A stretch of 64,000 bases of DNA from Bacillota bacterium (GTDB lineage Bacteria > Bacillota > Limnochordia > Limnochordales > ZCTH02-B6). Every line of letters begins with the position of its first letter. Position 1 is the stretch's first letter. The stretch is from contig PKQR02000002.1 of NCBI GenBank assembly GCA_017578085.2, positions 803-64,802 of the forward strand, given 5' to 3'. The position numbers were made by a program, and so were the translations under genes. The notes under the pieces are model-generated. The model ran no database searches. It was not told where the DNA came from and saw nothing but the letters and a program-made list of their open reading frames with translations. This document shows positions 20,237 through 57,300 of this stretch, one piece after another.

Positions 20237-20277
20237 GGTCGTCCCTCCTGCGACACCGTATGCAGAACCCGGCGCCG

Positions 20278-26690: not shown

Positions 26691-26912
26691 TCAAGAGGAG
26701 GCTGCGCCGTCCTTCGGAACGTTTTGGCGCTCGGCGGTCGAGGAGGCGGAGGCCGGTTTGGAGTCGTCCTCGTCCAACGAGCTGGTGGCCTTCTTAAACT
26801 CGCGAATGCCTTTGCCAATGGCTTTGCCCACCTCGGGCAGCTTGCCTGGTCCAAAGATGATCAACGCCAGGACCAGGATGATCACCAGCTCCGTCGCGCC
26901 GATCCCGAACAT
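26691..26912 (-). CDS. tatA: Twin-arginine translocase subunit TatA/TatE
   Basis: [42 protein letters not shown].. (73 aa). The ORF 26691..27017 was trimmed to ATG 26912. Confidence 0.85.
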
Positions 26913-27081
26913 GCCAACGCGCCCCCTTTGCCAGGTTGGGTGTGCAGCCCAGGTCTTCCTAAGTATATCGCACTGCCTGACAAAGGTAAAGCGGCACGCC
27001 CCGGAGCCCTTGCCCACGGGGCGCGCCGCCGCCAGCCAGCGTGTTCGTCAGTTTCCTTGCCGCTCGTCCGTGGGTGCAGCG

Positions 27082-27375
27082 CTAGCAGAAGTGGTGATGC
27101 TTCACCGCGATGCGGCGCACGAACACCGGGCGCACCGCGATTCTCCGCACGAACACCGGCGTCACCGCGATGGCGCGCACGAACACCGGGCGCACCGCGA
27201 TTCTCCGCACGAATACCGGCTTCACCGCGATGGCGCGTACGAACACCGGGCGCACCGCGATTCTCCGCACGAACACCGGCTTCACCGCGATGGTACGCAG
27301 GAAGACGGGCCGCACGAAGCTCGGGCAGACGGAGATGGTCCGGACCGCCACCGTACTCAAGCCATTGCAGGACAT
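27082..27375 (-). CDS. Hypothetical 97-aa tandem-repeat protein, entirely basic, built from V-x-x-[VI]-[FA] pentads
   Basis: ATG 27375 lies 6 nt after a strong RBS, GAAGGAGGTG. The product is MSCNGLSTVA VRTISVCPSF VRPVFLRTIA VKPVFVRRIA VRPVFVRAIA VKPVFVRRIA VRPVFVRAIA VTPVFVRRIA VRPVFVRRIA VKHHHFC. It has 16 Arg, 3 Lys, 3 His, 3 Cys and no Asp or Glu. By hand count about 90% of third positions are G/C, with GC1>GC2 as in the real genes here. All three frames on both strands are open because of the repeat, so the strand/frame call rests on the RBS and codon-position pattern only. Confidence 0.55.
   Translation of the reverse strand: MSCNGLSTVAVRTISVCPSFVRPVFLRTIAVKPVFVRRIAVRPVFVRAIAVKPVFVRRIAVRPVFVRAIAVTPVFVRRIAVRPVFVRRIAVKHHHFC
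27091..27300 (-). repeat. Tandem direct repeat, about 3.5 copies of a 60-bp unit, each unit made of two diverged 30-bp halves
   Basis: Units 27121-27180, 27181-27240 and 27241-27300 align column for column (gaacaccgggcgcaccgcgattctccgcacgaaCaccggcKtcaccgcgatggcgcgYac). Units 1 and 2 differ at 3 of 60 positions. 27091-27120 is a half unit. There are no unique spacers between copies, so this is not CRISPR. Confidence 0.95.
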
Positions 27376-27714
27376 GGTCGGCACCTCCTTCGTTTTGGCT
27401 TCGGTGTTACGGTATGTGGGCCCGTCCGCCTCCGCTCTAGGAATCGATTCGCATTTGCAACCGGATCGGCCCGGAGCCCGCTGCCACGCCGTCCGGTCGC
27501 GGCGGCCGCAGCGTCAACCCTCCGCCGGCGGCGCCCGGTTTGTACCACTTTACGCCAGCGGGTCCAGCGGACCAGGCGGGATGGAGACCGTTACCGTCTG
27601 CGCTAAACCTGCCATTCATTCCCATTGTACCTCCGGCAGGGTTTGGCCGCTTGCGTCCAGGATTCCTTGACCACCGGAGAGACCGATTGACTGTCGAGGA
27701 GGAATCCACCGCTC

Positions 27715-29781
27715 GTGAAATCACTTCCCAGTGCTACGACTCGCCGGCACCGGTGGTTTCATTCCATCGCCTGGCTGCTCTTGGCCACCCTGGTGACCGG
27801 CTGCTTCGGTTCGCCCTTGGGAGGCGACCCCGGCAGAGGTACCGACACCTTTGCCCTGCAGGGCATCGTCGTGACGCCCGATGGGACGCCGGTCCCCGGC
27901 GCTGTTGTGCGGGTCGGCGACCGGGAAACGACCTCCAACGAAGATGGCACCTTCGCTTTCAAGGACCTGCCCGTCCAGGGAGATAGGATGGAGATCGTCG
28001 TCTCGGCTCCCGGGTATGAACCCGCGACCGAGGTCATCTACCCGTCCGGGAGCAATCTCTCGGTCACCATTGTCCTGACGCCCATCGGCGATACAGGCGG
28101 GGATGGGAGCGACGGCGGCCAGGGCGGCGACGGCGGCACTGGCCCAGGTGGCGGCGACGGCGGGGGCAGCGGGCCCGAACCCGAGCCTGAACCCGAACCG
28201 GAACCGGTCTACCGGGGGACCGTCGAGGCCAGCGTACGCCTGGTCAACGCCGGGAACGCCCAAGTCGCCGCCGCAGCGGCCGTGCCCCGGGAGCTTTTGT
28301 CCAGCTCCGCGGGCCGGTCAGTGACCCGCACGACGGCCGACGTCGTTCCCGGGGAGTGGATTGTGCAGCTCGACAGCGACTACCCGGTCCAGGCCATCAA
28401 TACCATGTGGGCCGACGCGGGTGTGCGCGTCATCGAGCGGCTGGCCGACAACTTCTACCTCGTGGCCGCAGAGGAGGCTAACGCGTCCCTAGAGACGGAA
28501 CTGCGCCTCGCCCAGTTGCCCAACGTGGTTTCCGTGGAGCCCAACAAGCGGGTCCGGCCGGTCGCGGTTCCGTACGCGCCGAATGACACGTACTTCGACC
28601 GCCAGTGGAGCTTGCCGCTGGTGAGCATCCCCTACGCGTGGAACGTCACCACCGGCAGCCGCGATGTCGTGGTGGCCGTGCTGGACACGGGGATCTTGCC
28701 CAACCACCCCGACCTGCAAGGCGTGAGGATCGTCAGCGGGCGCAATTTTGCCAGCGACCAATCGGCCACCAACTACACCGACGACGCCACTTCCTTGAGC
28801 CACGGCACCATGGTGGCCGGCATCATCGGCGCCATGACCAACAACGGGCAAGGAATCGCGGGCATCAACTGGTCCGTGTCCATCATGCCCGTACGGGTCA
28901 TGAGCTCCCGGTACGGCGGGACCGTGGCCGCCGTCGGGCAAGGGATCCGTTGGGCGGTCGACAACGGCGCCCACGTCATCAACATGAGCCTGGCCTGGGA
29001 CGCGACGTACAACGACACCTTCGTCAACCAGCAGATCGAGTACGCGGTCAGCAAAGGCGTCGTGCTCGTGGCGGGCGCCGGCAACGACAGCGGGCGGGTG
29101 ACCATGCCTGCCGCCCACCCGGACGTCATCGCCGTCGGGGCGGTGGACCGCAGCAAGCGGCTGACGTGGTATTCCAACTACGGGCCGCAGGTGGACGTGG
29201 TCGCACCGGGCGGCGACACCCGCTACAGCCAAGCCAACGGCATCCTGAGCACAGACATCGTCAGCGGGCGCTACACCTACTCCTATCAGCAGGGTACTTC
29301 CTTCGCCGCTCCCCACGTGACAGGCATCGTGGCCCTGATGTATAGTGCAGGTATCACCGACCCCAACGAGATCCGGGAGCTCCTGCGCTATACCGCCGAG
29401 GACCTGGGCGCGCCCGGTTTCGACAACTACTACGGCTACGGCCTCGTGAACGCCTACGCGGCCGTGACCGGATCCGACCCGGTGAAAGCCCGGGTCGGTG
29501 TAGCCAGTGCGGACGGCACCCGGGTCTGGGGCCCCGTGAACCCGGTGCGGATCGGCCAGCGGGCCGTGGCCCGGGTCGAGGGCGTCGCACCCGGTCGGCA
29601 GACGGTGTTCGCCTGGATCGACTCCGTTCCCGACGGCGTTTTGGGCCAAGGGGACTTCGCCGGCATGGCCGAGGTGCAGGTGCCGGAGGACGGCACCGTC
29701 TCCGCCGATCTGGTCCTGGCTATCTGGGAGACGCTCCCCGCTCAGGACCGGGCACGGCTCGCCGCCTGGGCCAACCGCTGA
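27715..29781 (+). CDS. Subtilisin-like serine protease (peptidase S8), predicted lipoprotein with an N-terminal CarboxypepD_reg-like domain and I9-type propeptide
   Basis: 688-aa ORF with signal plus lipobox ..WLLLATLVTGC. A beta-sandwich region reads LQGIVVTPDGTPVPGAVVRVGDRETTSNEDGTFAFKDLP, followed by a G-rich/PEPEPEPEP linker. The catalytic triad motifs are VVVAVLDTGI (Asp), HGTMVAGIIGA (His) and GTSFAAPHVTGIVALM (Ser). Confidence 0.9.
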   Translation: MKSLPSATTRRHRWFHSIAWLLLATLVTGCFGSPLGGDPGRGTDTFALQGIVVTPDGTPVPGAVVRVGDRETTSNEDGTFAFKDLPVQGDRMEIVVSAPGYEPATEVIYPSGSNLSVTIVLTPIGDTGGDGSDGGQGGDGGTGPGGGDGGGSGPEPEPEPEPEPVYRGTVEASVRLVNAGNAQVAAAAAVPRELLSSSAGRSVTRTTADVVPGEWIVQLDSDYPVQAINTMWADAGVRVIERLADNFYLVAAEEANASLETELRLAQLPNVVSVEPNKRVRPVAVPYAPNDTYFDRQWSLPLVSIPYAWNVTTGSRDVVVAVLDTGILPNHPDLQGVRIVSGRNFASDQSATNYTDDATSLSHGTMVAGIIGAMTNNGQGIAGINWSVSIMPVRVMSSRYGGTVAAVGQGIRWAVDNGAHVINMSLAWDATYNDTFVNQQIEYAVSKGVVLVAGAGNDSGRVTMPAAHPDVIAVGAVDRSKRLTWYSNYGPQVDVVAPGGDTRYSQANGILSTDIVSGRYTYSYQQGTSFAAPHVTGIVALMYSAGITDPNEIRELLRYTAEDLGAPGFDNYYGYGLVNAYAAVTGSDPVKARVGVASADGTRVWGPVNPVRIGQRAVARVEGVAPGRQTVFAWIDSVPDGVLGQGDFAGMAEVQVPEDGTVSADLVLAIWETLPAQDRARLAAWANR

Positions 29782-29802: not shown

Positions 29803-30354
29803 ATGATGACGCGAGCAAGCGCGGCCAGCAGTGCCCGTAACGCTTCCCGCAAGCGGCGGGCAGCCTTGGCCGATTGGCGGTGGCTATTGCTTCTGGGAGG
29901 GATCGGCGCCTTGACGGTATTCGCCGGGCTGGGGGCGACGGGAACCCCGTCCACCGGTACGGGCGCGAGCCCAGCGGCGGGTGCGGGGCCGGCGGTCGCG
30001 GTGGACTTGGCCGTGGAGCCGGTGGATGTGGGCGGTCAAGCTGCCTACGTCCTGGCGCTTGGGGTCATGGCTTCAGGAAACGAGGAGGCGGTGCTCACCT
30101 TCCGCACCGGGCAGACCTACGATTTCGCGGCGTTCCAGGACGGCCGCGAGGTGTGGCGCTGGTCGGCCGGCCGGGCGTTTCATCAAGCCGTGACCGAGCG
30201 CCGGTTCCGCCCGGGAGAGCTGGTCGTGTTCACGCACGTGTGGGACGGTCGCGACGCTCTGGGGAACCCCCTGACGGGTCCGGTGGAAATCAGGGCCTGG
30301 CTTTCCTCTGACCCACCCATCGCGGCGGAACCGGCCATCCTCCAGCTGCCTTAG
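29803..30354 (+). CDS. Membrane-anchored BsuPI-like (intracellular proteinase inhibitor family) protein
   Basis: 183-aa ORF, 21 nt after the protease stop, with RBS AGAGGGGTG. It has an N-terminal TM (WRWLLLLGGIGALTVFAGL). It then reads ..AVLTFRTGQTYDFAAFQDGREVWRWSAGRAFHQAVTERRFRPGELVVFTHVW.., matching the F.F.sGQ.yDF....G.EVWRWS....F.Q......PGE...F...W pattern I recall for BsuPI (PF12690). Confidence 0.65.
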   Translation: MMTRASAASSARNASRKRRAALADWRWLLLLGGIGALTVFAGLGATGTPSTGTGASPAAGAGPAVAVDLAVEPVDVGGQAAYVLALGVMASGNEEAVLTFRTGQTYDFAAFQDGREVWRWSAGRAFHQAVTERRFRPGELVVFTHVWDGRDALGNPLTGPVEIRAWLSSDPPIAAEPAILQLP

Positions 30355-41466: not shown

Positions 41467-43038
41467 ATGTCCAGTTCGCGCACCGTCGCCCGCAACGCCG
41501 GCATCGTCATGCTCCTCATCCTCATCTCGCGCCTCCTCGGTTTCATCCGCGAGCGGGCCATCGCCGACGTCTTCGGCCTCTCGTGGGAAACCGACGCCTT
41601 CAGGGCCGCGTTCAACATCCCGGATTTGATGTACTTCCTCCTGGTGGGCGGCGCCATCAGCTCTGCCTTTATCCCGGTGTTCAGCAGCTACCTGGCCCGG
41701 GGGCAGGAGGACGAAGCGTGGCGCATGGCGGCGACGTTCATCACGTTAATCAGCGGGGGGCTTGTGGTCCTGACCGTGCTGGGCGTCATCTTTTCCCCGT
41801 GGCTCGCGCCCTTGGTGGCGCCCGGTTTCAGCGGCGACCAGCGGGAGCTCCTGGTCGTCCTGATGCGGGTCATGTTCCCGGCGGTCCTCTTCACGGCCCT
41901 CGCCGGCGTCGGCATGGGCGTGCACAACGCCTACCAGCGGTTCGCCGTACCCCTGCTCGGGCCCATTTTCTACAACATCGCCATCACCTTGGGCGCGTAT
42001 CTCCTCGGACCCGTCATGGGCATCATGGGCATGGCCGTGGGGACCGTGGCCGGCGCCGTGGGCAACTTCTTGATCCAAGCGCCCTTCGTCGCCCGCGCCG
42101 CCCGACGGTTTCCGTGGCGCTTGCAGCTGCGGCACCCGGGGCTGCTAAAAGTGGTCCGGCTGATGATCCCCACCATCATCGGTCTGTCCGTCGTGCAGCT
42201 CAACACCATCATCCTGACCGCCCTGGCCTCCACCCTGGCGGAGGGCCACATCACGGCGCTGAACCTCGCCAACCGCCTCATCCAGTTGCCGCTCGGGGTA
42301 TTCGGCATGGGGATGTCCATGGTCATCTTCCCGGTGATGGCGCGCCTCGCGGCCTTGGGGGATCTGCAGGAATTCGGCCGCACCCTGGGTACCGGCCTGC
42401 GCACGGTGCTGTTTGTCACAGTGCCGTCGGCGGCGGGGCTTGTCGCTTTGGGAGAGCCCATCGTGCGCCTCTTGTTTGAGGTAGGGGCGTTCGGGCCCCA
42501 AGACACGGCGACGACCGCGTACGCCCTGTGGTTTTTCGGCGCCGGCGTTTTTGCCCTTTCGTCGGTGCAGGTGCTGACTCGCGCCTTTTATTCCCTGCAG
42601 GATACCGTCACGCCGGTGAAGATCGGCCTGCTGACGGTCGCCACCAACACCGCGCTCAGCCTGGCGCTGCTGCGCTGGACGAATCTTTCCCACGGCGGCC
42701 TGGCGCTGGCCTTCTCGGCCGCCGCCATCGTGCAGATGGCGGCCCAGCTCATGCTCTTGCGGCCAAAGCTGGGGGGCCGGCTGGACATCCGGGCCATCGC
42801 GGGCACGTTTGCGCGGGCCGCCGTCGGTTCAGCCCTCATGTTCCCGGCGGTCCAGGCAGCGGCCCAGCTGGCGGGGGCCTATGTGGATCTCACCCTCACC
42901 AGCGGCCGGCTCGCGCAGGTGCTGGCGGGGATTGCGGCCGGCGTGGCCGTCTACGGTCTTGTGGCTGTCGTGCTCCGCATGGAGGAACTGCAGTTGGTGC
43001 TCTCCACGTTTCGCCGCATGGCCCGCCGCTCGTCCTAG
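41467..43038 (+). CDS. murJ: Lipid II flippase MurJ
   Basis: [37 protein letters not shown].. with about 14 TM segments. ATG 41467 follows GGAGGAAAG. The ORF track 5' extension overlaps lepA. Confidence 0.85.
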
Positions 43039-44474
43039 CGGACCGCACCGGCGCCGGCGCCCCGGCCGCTCTCGACGATTCCCAAGATCATCTCCGCCAG
43101 CACGTCGGCCAAAAGTTCCGCCGCCCGCACCGCCTCGTCCAGGTGGTTGTCGTACGACCCGATTTCCACCAGCACCGCCCGCGGGTGCAGGTCCTGGTTG
43201 AGGCGCGAGTCCGGCCGCTCGATGACCCGGCGGAACATGCCCGGCCAGCGGCTCTGAATGCGCTCGCCCAGCGCCTGGGCAAAGGCGAGGTTGGCGCGCC
43301 AGCCGGGGTGCATGGCGGTGTTGGTCCCTACCACCAGGGCCACCTGGGCGACCTTTTGCCCGGCCACGGTGGCGACCAGGCCCGCCGGCGCGTCCCGGTG
43401 AACGTCCAGCACGATTTCAACATTTGGATTGCGGACCAGGACCTCCTGCACGGTCGCCCGCGCCGCGATGTAGGCGCGGGGGTGTGACGGCCAGTCGTGG
43501 ATCTCCACCGCGTGGCAGGTGGGAATCCCGTAGACCTCCTCCAGGCGCTGGCGCAACGCCCGGCCGACCTCTACGATGCCCGTCTCGGTCGTGTTCCAAA
43601 TGTGGTAGGCATCCTCCCGGGCCGGCGCGAACGTCCCCGTCCGGTACGTCTCTGACGTGTGGGTGTGGTAAATCAGGATCCGGCACCCGTCGCCCCACTG
43701 CACCGCCCGAAGTCGCTGCTTCCAATCGGGCGTGGCGGCGGGCTCCACCCCCGCGCCGGGATCGGCGGGCGGCCCCTCCGGTTGCGGCCCGTCTGGTTCA
43801 GGGACTGCCCCCGGCAGCTGAGGCACCGGCGACGGAGGCACTTGCGGCGCCGCCGGGGGGCGCGGCGCGGCCTCGGGGATCCGCGACCCGGCAGGCGGCT
43901 CTGGGGTATCCTGCGGCGGGCGCGGGACCAAGTCATTCACGGCAGCGACGGTAGCCCGCGGGGCGGCAGGCGCGGGCGCCGGCAAGAGCCCCCGGCGCTG
44001 ATCCTGGCTGTAGGCGGCCAGGCCCGGGATGGCCGCCTCCAGCAGGGTCTGCGGGTTTCCGATATCGTAGCGGGTGACGGCGTACACCAGCGCCCGCGCT
44101 TCGCGACGCCAGTCGGGCGGCGGGGGCGGTTCTGGCCCGGTCTCCCAGACCGCCGTGGGCAGCCCTTCGCGCAGGGCAGCCTCCCCCAGCCGTCCCTGGG
44201 CCTCGGCCCATGAGACAATGCCGGGCAAGAGCTGGCCGGCTCCCGTCGCAGCCCCCTGCCAGGCGCCGGCGATGAAGCCGGCCAACCGCGCGCGGGCTTG
44301 CGGGTAGGCCCGATCCAGCGCGACCAGCCCCGCGCCGGCCACGAGCACAAGCCAGAAGACGAGCAGCTGGCGCACGGGCGGGTACCACGTGCGCCGGCCC
44401 AGCCGCCCCAGTCGAATCCGCAGCACCCGCAGGCGCCACCGCAGCCGCGCCCAGCCGATGCGAACCACAGCCAT
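43035..44474 (-). CDS. spoIIP: Stage II sporulation protein P (SpoIIP) with a Pro-rich linker
   Basis: The C-terminal domain reads ..ILIYHTHTSETY..VLDVHRDA..ALVVG..NLAFAQAL..RPDSRLNQDLHPRAVLVEIG. It has an N-terminal TM (LLVFWLVLVAGAGLVAL). The start is ATG 44474 or GTG 44468, after GGGAGG. Confidence 0.8.
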   Translation of the reverse strand: MAVVRIGWARLRWRLRVLRIRLGRLGRRTWYPPVRQLLVFWLVLVAGAGLVALDRAYPQARARLAGFIAGAWQGAATGAGQLLPGIVSWAEAQGRLGEAALREGLPTAVWETGPEPPPPPDWRREARALVYAVTRYDIGNPQTLLEAAIPGLAAYSQDQRRGLLPAPAPAAPRATVAAVNDLVPRPPQDTPEPPAGSRIPEAAPRPPAAPQVPPSPVPQLPGAVPEPDGPQPEGPPADPGAGVEPAATPDWKQRLRAVQWGDGCRILIYHTHTSETYRTGTFAPAREDAYHIWNTTETGIVEVGRALRQRLEEVYGIPTCHAVEIHDWPSHPRAYIAARATVQEVLVRNPNVEIVLDVHRDAPAGLVATVAGQKVAQVALVVGTNTAMHPGWRANLAFAQALGERIQSRWPGMFRRVIERPDSRLNQDLHPRAVLVEIGSYDNHLDEAVRAAELLADVLAEMILGIVESGRGAGAGAVR

Positions 44475-44583
44475 CCTCCCTTTCACCGCCAGTGTATGGG
44501 ACGAACTGAGGTGGATATGCCTCCCCGCCGCATACCCTGGCGTTTCGGCCCGTATTGTTAGCCAATGGAGGGGGCGGAAGACG

Positions 44584-56945: not shown

Positions 56946-57300
56946 GCAGGTGTGACGGATGGCCGCTGGCGGCTTATAACAGCCGCTAGAGGAAAGTCCA
57001 GACTCGGCTGCCGGCACTGCCGGCAGAAAGTTGGTGCCTGCCGCAAGGCAGGGCGGCGCGAGCCGACGGATGCGAAACCGGCCCTCGTGGTCGGGATTAG
57101 CTATAAAAGGGCCATAGAGACGAGTCGCCCCGGCGACGGGGCGGGTGGAACGTGGTAACCCCCACCACCGAGCAACCCCAAATAGGCCCCGCAAGGGGCG
57201 GGTAGGGGGCAGCCTCCCTCAGGGAGGCCGTCCGGTGCAACGCCGGGCGAGATAGATGGCCATCGGAAACAGAATCTGGCTTACGGTCACACCTGCTTAC
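56946..57300 (+). ncRNA. rnpB: RNase P RNA (bacterial, type-A-like)
   Basis: P4 5' strand AGAGGAAAGUCCAGACUCGG (~56988) and P4 3' strand AAACAGAAUCUGGCUUACGG (~57268). P1 pairs GCAGGUGUGAC (56946-56) with GUCACACCUGC (57286-96). P2 pairs GAUGGCC with GGCCAUC. The interior segment GGGUGGAACGUGGUAACCCCCACC..GAGCAA..CCAAAUAGG..GGGUAGG aligns with the E. coli M1 RNA as I remember it. Confidence 0.85.

Follow-up and report, generated by a model that had tools for sequence, protein, structure and literature searches.

The 64,000-nucleotide stretch of DNA analysed here (hereafter the window) belongs to a bacterium of the order Limnochordales, and its minus strand carries a short open reading frame (ORF) built on a tandem repeat, which we refer to as the mini-gene. 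It occupies positions 27082-27375, with 97 codons and a TAG stop (ATG at 27375-27373, TAG at 27084-27082, as given by the ORF listing and its translation), and is preceded by the Shine-Dalgarno sequence GAAGGAGGTG (27382..27391, minus strand), read directly in the DNA and located 6 nt before the ATG. Tandem Repeats Finder (TRF) placed an array of period 60 at 27099-27315 on the same strand, with 3.6 copies and 91% matches, and scored it also at a sub-period of 30 bp (7.1 copies, 76%); the array encodes units of the form VKPVFVRRIA-VRPVFVRAIA. Compared unit by unit, the three full 60-nt copies showed 2–4 nt differences in each pair, i.e., they are 93–97% identical. The GC content at codon positions 1, 2 and 3 was 0.61, 0.47 and 0.91, values typical of genes in this window (68% GC). 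Since the ribosome-binding site (RBS) is strong and the GC at third codon positions (GC3) is among the highest in the window, a high expression of the mini-gene is suggested. Three arginines within the repeat (27150-27290) use the codon AGA, which should be rare at 68% GC; the copies were spread by the 60-bp duplication, and each pair of adjacent arginines (RR) is written CGG AGA.

The predicted product reads MSCNG LSTVA VRTIS VCPSF, followed by 14 pentads of the VRPVF/VRRIA type and a final VKHHHFC, and keeps a single unbroken pentad register over its whole length, from residue 1 onward. It contains 16 Arg and 3 Lys with no Asp or Glu, its isoelectric point (pI) is at least 12 and its grand average of hydropathy (GRAVY) +0.84; cysteines are found at residues 3, 17 and 97, the last one closing a KHHHFC tail. 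The repeats of the array are made of V, R, P, F, I and A, with Ser nearly absent. Pairs of Arg/Lys residues spaced by 5 or 10 positions number 25, compared to 6.5 ± 2.1 in shuffled sequences. An earlier note on this DNA, made from the letters alone, had described the near-perfect 60-bp repeat inside a 97-codon minus-strand ORF, the strong RBS with its 6-nt spacer and ATG, the strict pentad period, the lack of acidic residues, the three cysteines and the tail; all of this was recomputed, and its descriptive statements were confirmed in every detail.

Orthologues and evolution of the repeat

We have searched for relatives in a word-indexed collection of 5.8 billion proteins, by exhaustive HMMER comparison with 1.84 billion representatives, and in GTDB genomes and Joint Genome Institute (JGI) metagenomes. 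The identical 97-aa product is called on nine public contigs, including the metagenome-assembled genomes GCA_047459395.1 and GCA_003387765.1, and about 12 distinct orthologues of 93–119 aa were found at one shared genomic position in Limnochordales. The neighbours are constant in all loci examined, with a divergent S8 subtilase gene and a BsuPI inhibitor gene upstream and tatA downstream. In the HMMER search of the 1.84 billion representatives the real relatives were P0003 and the fragment P0001 only; 14 further matches were translated simple repeats such as (AIRAI)n or (LALRD)n, and neither the window nor the fetched loci contained paralogues. Judging from the collections searched, the gene is restricted to the Limnochordales, the spore-forming order of Bacillota that includes the family ZCTH02-B6. 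Members of the protein cluster carry the NCBI name “hypothetical protein [Limnochordales bacterium].”

Two subfamilies can be distinguished. Subfamily A includes the window protein and those of L008 (i.e., “Firmicutes bacterium ZCTH02-B6”), L009/L011 and L010, with 97–109 aa and the N-terminus MxCNG..VAVRTISVCPSF. Subfamily B (P0002, P0003 and P0018-P0025; 93–119 aa) has a conserved core, MGCVRTISLRPSALRTIVVRNGLRTIAV..HGLRTIVVPR.ISLRPISFSDSFLARVRVTVTPISNGVARAVAVRPVFVRP, after which come V-R-x-V-x pentads in variable number and then a final Cys. The pentad takes the form [V/L]-R-[P/T/R]-[V/I]-[F/A/S] over the family, with V, I, L, F and A making up half of the residues and GRAVY values of up to +0.85. 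Every member has 15–21 Arg, 0–2 acidic residues and a total of two to four Cys situated at the chain ends, with Cys3 always present, a small residue at position 2, and a Cys as the last or next-to-last residue. With Ser, Gly or Ala invariably at this position, the initiator Met would be expected to be cleaved off, leaving a Cys near the N-terminal end. Among the 90% cluster members, P0035 (163 aa) and P0027 (121 aa) represent proteins of the family called wrongly or in a shifted frame, which either extend N-terminally through the promoter region or read through at the C-terminus; automatic annotation of the gene is unstable.

The minus-strand ORF is very probably a genuine protein-coding gene, specifying a basic pentad-repeat protein of 97 aa (27082..27375). 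Besides the ORF listing, this is indicated by the conservation of the frame, the ATG, the RBS core AAGGAGGTG (invariant in eight aligned loci, seven of them distinct) and the terminal Cys in the seven distinct loci and about 12 distinct proteins, where indels are multiples of 3. The ratio of non-synonymous to synonymous substitution rates (dN/dS) was 0.18–0.59 in the sense frame, which gave the lowest value in six of the seven pairs for which antisense frames were computed, while the three antisense frames gave 0.25–0.59, 0.5–1.4 and 1.5–2.5. Between the window and L008 the sense value was 0.40 and that of antisense frame 1 was 0.59; between L010 and L014 the sense value was 0.25. The plus-strand ORF at 27110-27670 shares wobble positions with the sense frame, hence dN/dS alone cannot discriminate between the two. 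This antisense ORF was rejected as a real gene on other grounds: it contains stop codons in L008, L007, L012 and L014, and its 3′ part is unconserved and enters intergenic DNA with indels that are not multiples of three. Taken together, the comparisons show the mini-gene to be conserved and under purifying selection, and the frame conservation in relatives that the earlier note had proposed to look for was indeed found, with the rival frame broken.

It could still be argued that there is no functional protein at all, the repeat being non-coding or acting as RNA, the plus-strand ORF being the real gene, or the region being a leader that controls tatA. Many frames stay open in DNA of 68% GC, the wobble-sharing antisense frame reaches a GC3 of 0.91 with the dN/dS of 0.25–0.59 given above, and tatA is always the next gene. 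We consider this highly improbable in view of the four orthologous loci in which the antisense ORF is stopped, the non-multiple-of-three indels into which it runs and the conservation of start codon, RBS, Cys3 and terminal Cys. In addition, a scan against Rfam gave no match at the locus (the only one in the window was the RNase P RNA mentioned below), and the ORF is divided from tatA by a terminator-like hairpin and a sigma70-like promoter of its own.

The DNA period is not conserved among relatives. TRF gave periods of 15, 30 and 45 bp in L009, 45 bp in L010 and 15 bp in L012, while it detected no DNA tandem repeat in L008, which retains the periodicity of its arginines (21 pairs, compared to 5.5 ± 2.0 in shuffles). 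Because L008 keeps the five-residue Arg periodicity without a detectable repeat in its DNA, the conserved and selected unit is the pentad and not the 60-bp unit. Exactly one VRPVF pentad sets the near-identical P0003 and P0018 apart, P0034 is shorter than P0024 by 6 residues, and the C-terminal region across subfamily B ranges from two to eight pentads. The sequences thus compared indicate that repeat length varies in frame, one pentad being the usual step, with a different multiple amplified in each lineage. The in-frame copy-number change that the earlier note thought possible is therefore seen between relatives. Its suggestion of a recent expansion or concerted evolution also agrees with the 93–97% identity of the units and the different DNA periods of other lineages: the array in the window appears as a comparatively recent, species-specific expansion or homogenisation, not as a structural period. 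The repeat region would evolve through in-frame slippage or unequal recombination, by about one pentad (15 bp) at a time. Heterogeneity of repeat number within the species, another possibility raised in that note, was not seen in the seven assemblies available, where the 294-nt ORF is identical; the flanks differ by ∼15–22 single-nucleotide polymorphisms (SNPs) between the two directly comparable 13.5-kb contigs.

Upstream elements and transcription unit

Alignment of the seven distinct loci revealed three invariant blocks upstream of the ORF amid diverging DNA, namely the RBS, the octamer CATAnCGT and a T-CTA...C motif. The octamer corresponds in the window to CATACCGTA (27408..27416, minus strand), 32 nt upstream of the ATG, which we have annotated, from its conservation and rarity, as a putative −10 element of the sigmaE/sigmaK class. 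CATAnCGT is invariant in 7/7 loci, with its end always 31–32 nt from the ATG while the flanking DNA diverges. The sequence CATANNNTA has only three matches in the window counting both strands, and of the other two copies one lies antisense inside a gene and one in the grpE-hrcA spacer, but on its wrong strand. The form CATACNGT has only two matches in 128 kb of strand, and the second is directly upstream of a yabP/yqfC homologue, at 20255-20262 (minus strand), where it reads CATACGGT, is preceded by GTCTA 16 nt before, and lies just ahead of the RBS of the yabP-yqfD pair. In B. subtilis both yqfC-yqfD and spoIIP are sigmaE-dependent. The spoIIP homologue of the window (∼43035-44474, minus strand) has a near-consensus sigmaE-type promoter, GCATA-N17-CATACACT (44491-44520, minus strand), about 20 nt before its likely start, and this predicted promoter shows that the rules of B. 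subtilis-type mother-cell promoters apply in this high-GC Limnochordales genome.

The promoters recognized by sigmaE and sigmaK have a common −10 sequence and are told apart by a one-base difference in the −35 (PMC517825). The −10 is likewise shared in Clostridioides difficile, whose sigmaE promoters have ATA and whose sigmaK promoters have AC as the −35 (PMC3789822). The third invariant block of the mini-gene, TTCCTAGAGC (27434..27443, minus strand; T-CTA...C in the invariant columns of the alignment), has its CTA 21 nt and its invariant C 17 nt upstream of CATA, and is a possible weak −35 element or activator site. As a sigmaE −35 element it was rejected, the spacing being 21 nt compared to 16–17 nt in the yabP and spoIIP promoters; because it is too far upstream for a normal −35, it may instead bind an activator. 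For the base that discriminates sigmaK the invariant C is a candidate, with a register that is ambiguous by 1 nt. A sigmaG or sigmaF promoter was also discarded, the −10 box fitting neither CATnnTA nor GGnnAnAnT, the consensus sequences used for comparison. The mini-gene has, then, a conserved and correctly placed candidate −10 box of the mother-cell class, similar in type and position to those of the yabP and spoIIP homologues, and expression in the mother cell, under sigmaE or sigmaK, stands slightly above an even chance.

Beyond the stop codon the sequence can form a GC-rich hairpin resembling a terminator (26991-27029), with UUUACCUUUG behind it, the whole element covering 26981..27029 on the minus strand. 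RNA folding of 26975-27090 (minus strand) gave a 17-bp stem and −57.7 kcal/mol for the region (z = −2.0), and a comparable hairpin follows the stop codon in L007. A simple terminator scan did not call the hairpin at 26991-27029, its U-tract being weak. The next gene, tatA, has its own sigma70-like promoter (TTTACC-17-TATACT, 26962-26990, minus strand), also visible in L007. With a hairpin 3′ of the stop and a separate tatA promoter, the mini-gene is predicted to be monocistronic, a transcription unit of a single gene, and for the same reasons co-transcription with tatA or leader control of it is unlikely.

Fold and proposed role

The earlier note did not recognise the product as any described family, and our searches agree: neither the product nor the 11 family members matched a family in Pfam or NCBIfam scans, and a profile search of the PDB had no match at E ≤ 10. 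We are probably dealing with an uncharacterised family of lineage-specific, basic, tandem-repeat proteins of sporulation type, so far annotated only as hypothetical. Structure prediction had low confidence in both runs. AlphaFold2 run on the single sequence (mean predicted local distance difference test, pLDDT, 47.6) gave 6-residue strands every 10 residues, in a beta-meander-like arrangement, and with the alignment of 11 sequences (pLDDT 35.4) it gave no secondary structure. The monomer may be disordered, if these models are a guide, and fold only on assembly.

The more specific idea in that note, that 60 bp correspond to 20 aa and these to one coil of a quadrilateral beta-helix, was not supported. 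It would make the product a non-canonical pentapeptide-repeat protein with a right-handed quadrilateral beta-helix. The strict five-residue period speaks for it, as does the chemistry of the repeat, of which three to four positions in five would suit the pentapeptide consensus [STAV][DN][LF][STR][G] (by our own reasoning, V/I at i−2, V/L at i and R at i+1), and known pentapeptide-repeat proteins (PF00805 and relatives, such as Qnr, MfpA and Rfr) likewise have a tandem period of five residues with hydrophobics at two inward positions. However, the mini-protein lacks the A(D/N)LXX consensus, with F/A in place of D/N at position i−1, and is strongly positive, while known members are acidic DNA mimics. 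None of the 11 family members matched the Pentapeptide hidden Markov models (HMMs; PF00805, PF13599 and PF13576) at E ≤ 10, hhalign against a Qnr-type protein (an approximate sequence) gave a probability of 0.03%, and neither AlphaFold2 model (a monomer, modelled with low confidence at pLDDT 35–48) contained a beta-helix. Besides, the DNA periods of relatives, 15, 30 or 45 bp or none, and their indels of 5 or 6 aa, which are not multiples of four pentads, indicate that there is no constraint to a coil of 20 aa. We regard a beta-helix of this kind as quite improbable.

The reading that we favour, at a probability of roughly one in three, is that the product of the mini-gene is a structural spore-envelope protein particular to this lineage, which the mother cell makes and which self-associates and is cross-linked through its cysteines. 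This reading is based on the strong RBS and high GC3, the promoter box, the restriction to a spore-forming order, the combination of basicity with beta-prone hydrophobic residues, the cysteines at the ends and the fast-evolving repeat number. Transcription would occur in the mother cell during sporulation, from the sigmaE/sigmaK-type promoter, and the protein would become part of the structure of the spore envelope, in a coat-like role. Subunits would associate through their beta-prone V/I/F pentads, bind anionic partners with their Arg side chains and be cross-linked at the terminal cysteines; all of this, from the sigma factor and the time of expression to the place in the spore and the way of assembly, we infer. 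The loose analogy with spore coat proteins drawn in the earlier note gains from the conserved sigmaE/sigmaK-type −10 box, but homology to known coat proteins was not found.

Several observations weigh against a spore-envelope role. The AlphaFold2 monomer has no confident fold, the Pfam and NCBIfam scans of the 11 members gave no homology to known coat proteins, and there are no coat-assembly genes or cotH near the locus. The −35 region is poor compared to the sigmaE (ATA) and sigmaK (AC) consensus, with AC at the sigmaK spacing in L009 only, and the T-CTA block, at 21 nt, is too far away for a standard −35, which leaves the sigma assignment to the −10 box alone. Finally, a protein as basic as this might just as well bind nucleic acids.

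This last alternative, a small basic protein that binds polyanions (DNA, RNA, polyphosphate, dipicolinate or teichoic-type polymers) and acts as a condensing or chaperone factor instead of as a structural coat component, is unlikely. A pI of at least 12, the 15–21 Arg and 0–2 acidic residues in every member, the regular spacing of Arg every 5 residues and a monomer predicted to be disordered, like many nucleic-acid binders, would all fit. On the other hand, a protein in which half of the residues are V/I/L/F/A, with GRAVY up to +0.85, is unusual among soluble nucleic-acid binders, a promoter of mother-cell type speaks against action on the forespore chromosome, and the Pfam and NCBIfam scans found no nucleic-acid-binding domain. 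The mini-protein could also be a membrane-active cationic beta-peptide with an N-to-C disulfide, a long version of arenicin or protegrin, released at sporulation as a toxin or cannibalism factor. Arenicin, protegrin, Bac5 and PR-39 are similarly made of Arg with V/I/F (and P), arenicin has Cys near both termini, as the mini-protein has in Cys3 and its terminal Cys, and the beta-meander of the single-sequence AlphaFold2 model is in line with such a peptide. Yet the mini-protein is bacterial, has a sporulation-type promoter and, at 93–119 aa over the family, is far longer than the known peptides of this type (five times longer); it lacks a signal peptide or pro-region, export, maturation or immunity genes are absent within ±10 kb, and the twin-arginine pairs are unconserved, hence the adjacent TatA is not an obvious exporter. 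We consider this improbable.

A more speculative and rather unlikely possibility is that we are looking at a new structural principle, in which all-basic hydrophobic pentads form a beta-solenoid or cross-beta fibre only on self-assembly or polyanion binding, with the terminal Cys polymerising subunits head-to-tail. Such a protein would build a spore layer peculiar to Limnochordia or, put differently, would be the positively charged counterpart to a fold, that of the pentapeptide repeats, which mimics DNA. The probability that remains beyond these readings goes to something else.

If the protein does belong to the spore envelope, its closest analogues in character would be the CotG-like coat proteins of Bacillus. 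These are also small, very basic, lineage-restricted and made of short tandem repeats that vary in number, and they are made in the mother cell; for the mini-gene a mother-cell-type promoter is predicted from CATAnCGT. The repeats of CotG are hydrophilic (Lys/Ser/Arg/His/Tyr) and phosphorylated by CotH, and cotG adjoins cotH. In contrast, those of the mini-protein are half hydrophobic and based on Arg, not rich in Lys/Ser; there is no gene with a CotH domain within ±10 kb of the mini-gene, and no sequence similarity. Like CotY/CotZ/ExsY and CdeC, the mini-protein has conserved cysteines that could give intermolecular disulfides in an extracytoplasmic layer of the spore, but those proteins are Cys-rich and larger, compared to a family with two to four Cys at the ends, and the Pfam and NCBIfam scans detected no homology to them.

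Spore coats are largely made of lineage-specific proteins, and we know of no information on the spore-coat proteins of Limnochordia, a deep-branching class of spore-forming Bacillota that stains Gram-negative. If a spore-envelope role is true, this family provides a concrete and easily testable candidate for a spore protein of the class. Its chemistry is unusual, without acidic residues, with Arg every fifth residue, half of its residues hydrophobic and Cys only at the chain ends. A protein of this kind that self-assembles would be of interest for research on protein materials, amyloids and repeat proteins; if it does not, it is still a well-defined orphan family annotated only as “hypothetical protein.”

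Host lineage and neighbouring genes

ZCTH02-B6 is a GTDB family of Limnochordales known from thermophilic compost and hydrothermal sediments. The class has as its type organism Limnochorda pilosa, which is regarded as a spore-former and possesses dpaAB and a gene for sigmaK. The host lineage has homologues of the sporulation genes spoIIP, gpr, yabP and yqfD. The gene order in the window includes hrcA-grpE-dnaK-dnaJ-prmA-rsmE ... rpsU-nfeD-floA-yabP(yqfC)-yqfD-phoH, and a class B RNase P RNA, typical of Bacillota, was identified by Rfam at 56951-57288 (plus strand; 153 bits), which confirms that the DNA comes from Bacillota.

The tatA gene (26694-26912, minus strand), whose promoter abuts the terminator hairpin of the mini-gene, stands alone: tatC is not adjacent, and a beta-eliminating lyase gene is inserted after tatA in L012 and L014. 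We considered whether the VRRIAVK motifs beside tatA could make the product a Tat substrate or mimic a Tat signal, and rejected it as RR is not conserved; the N-terminus, MSCNGLSTVAVRTIS, has no RR and so does not match a twin-arginine signal (S/T-R-R-x-F-L-K with h-region and cleavage site), and the internal RR pairs are missing in P0019, P0021 and P0022.

On the other side, the S8 subtilase gene (27715-29781, plus strand) encodes a CarboxypepD_reg domain and a low-complexity GGDG/PEPEPEPE linker (TRF, 28112-28205), and is paired with a BsuPI-type protease inhibitor gene (∼29803-30354). Every Limnochordales locus keeps this pair next to the mini-gene. In the gap that separates the mini-gene from the subtilase gene, a 62-aa ORF (∼27437-27625, minus strand) is called on several contigs (L002-L005), probably spuriously, since there are large indels that are not multiples of three between the orthologous loci. 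Next to the start of the subtilase gene (27560-27715) the window and L009 share a strongly conserved block of ∼110 nt, which is not conserved in L008. It contains GGTGGTCAAGGAATCCTGGACG and GGTACAATGGGAATG and may be the promoter or the 5′ leader of the divergent S8 protease gene.

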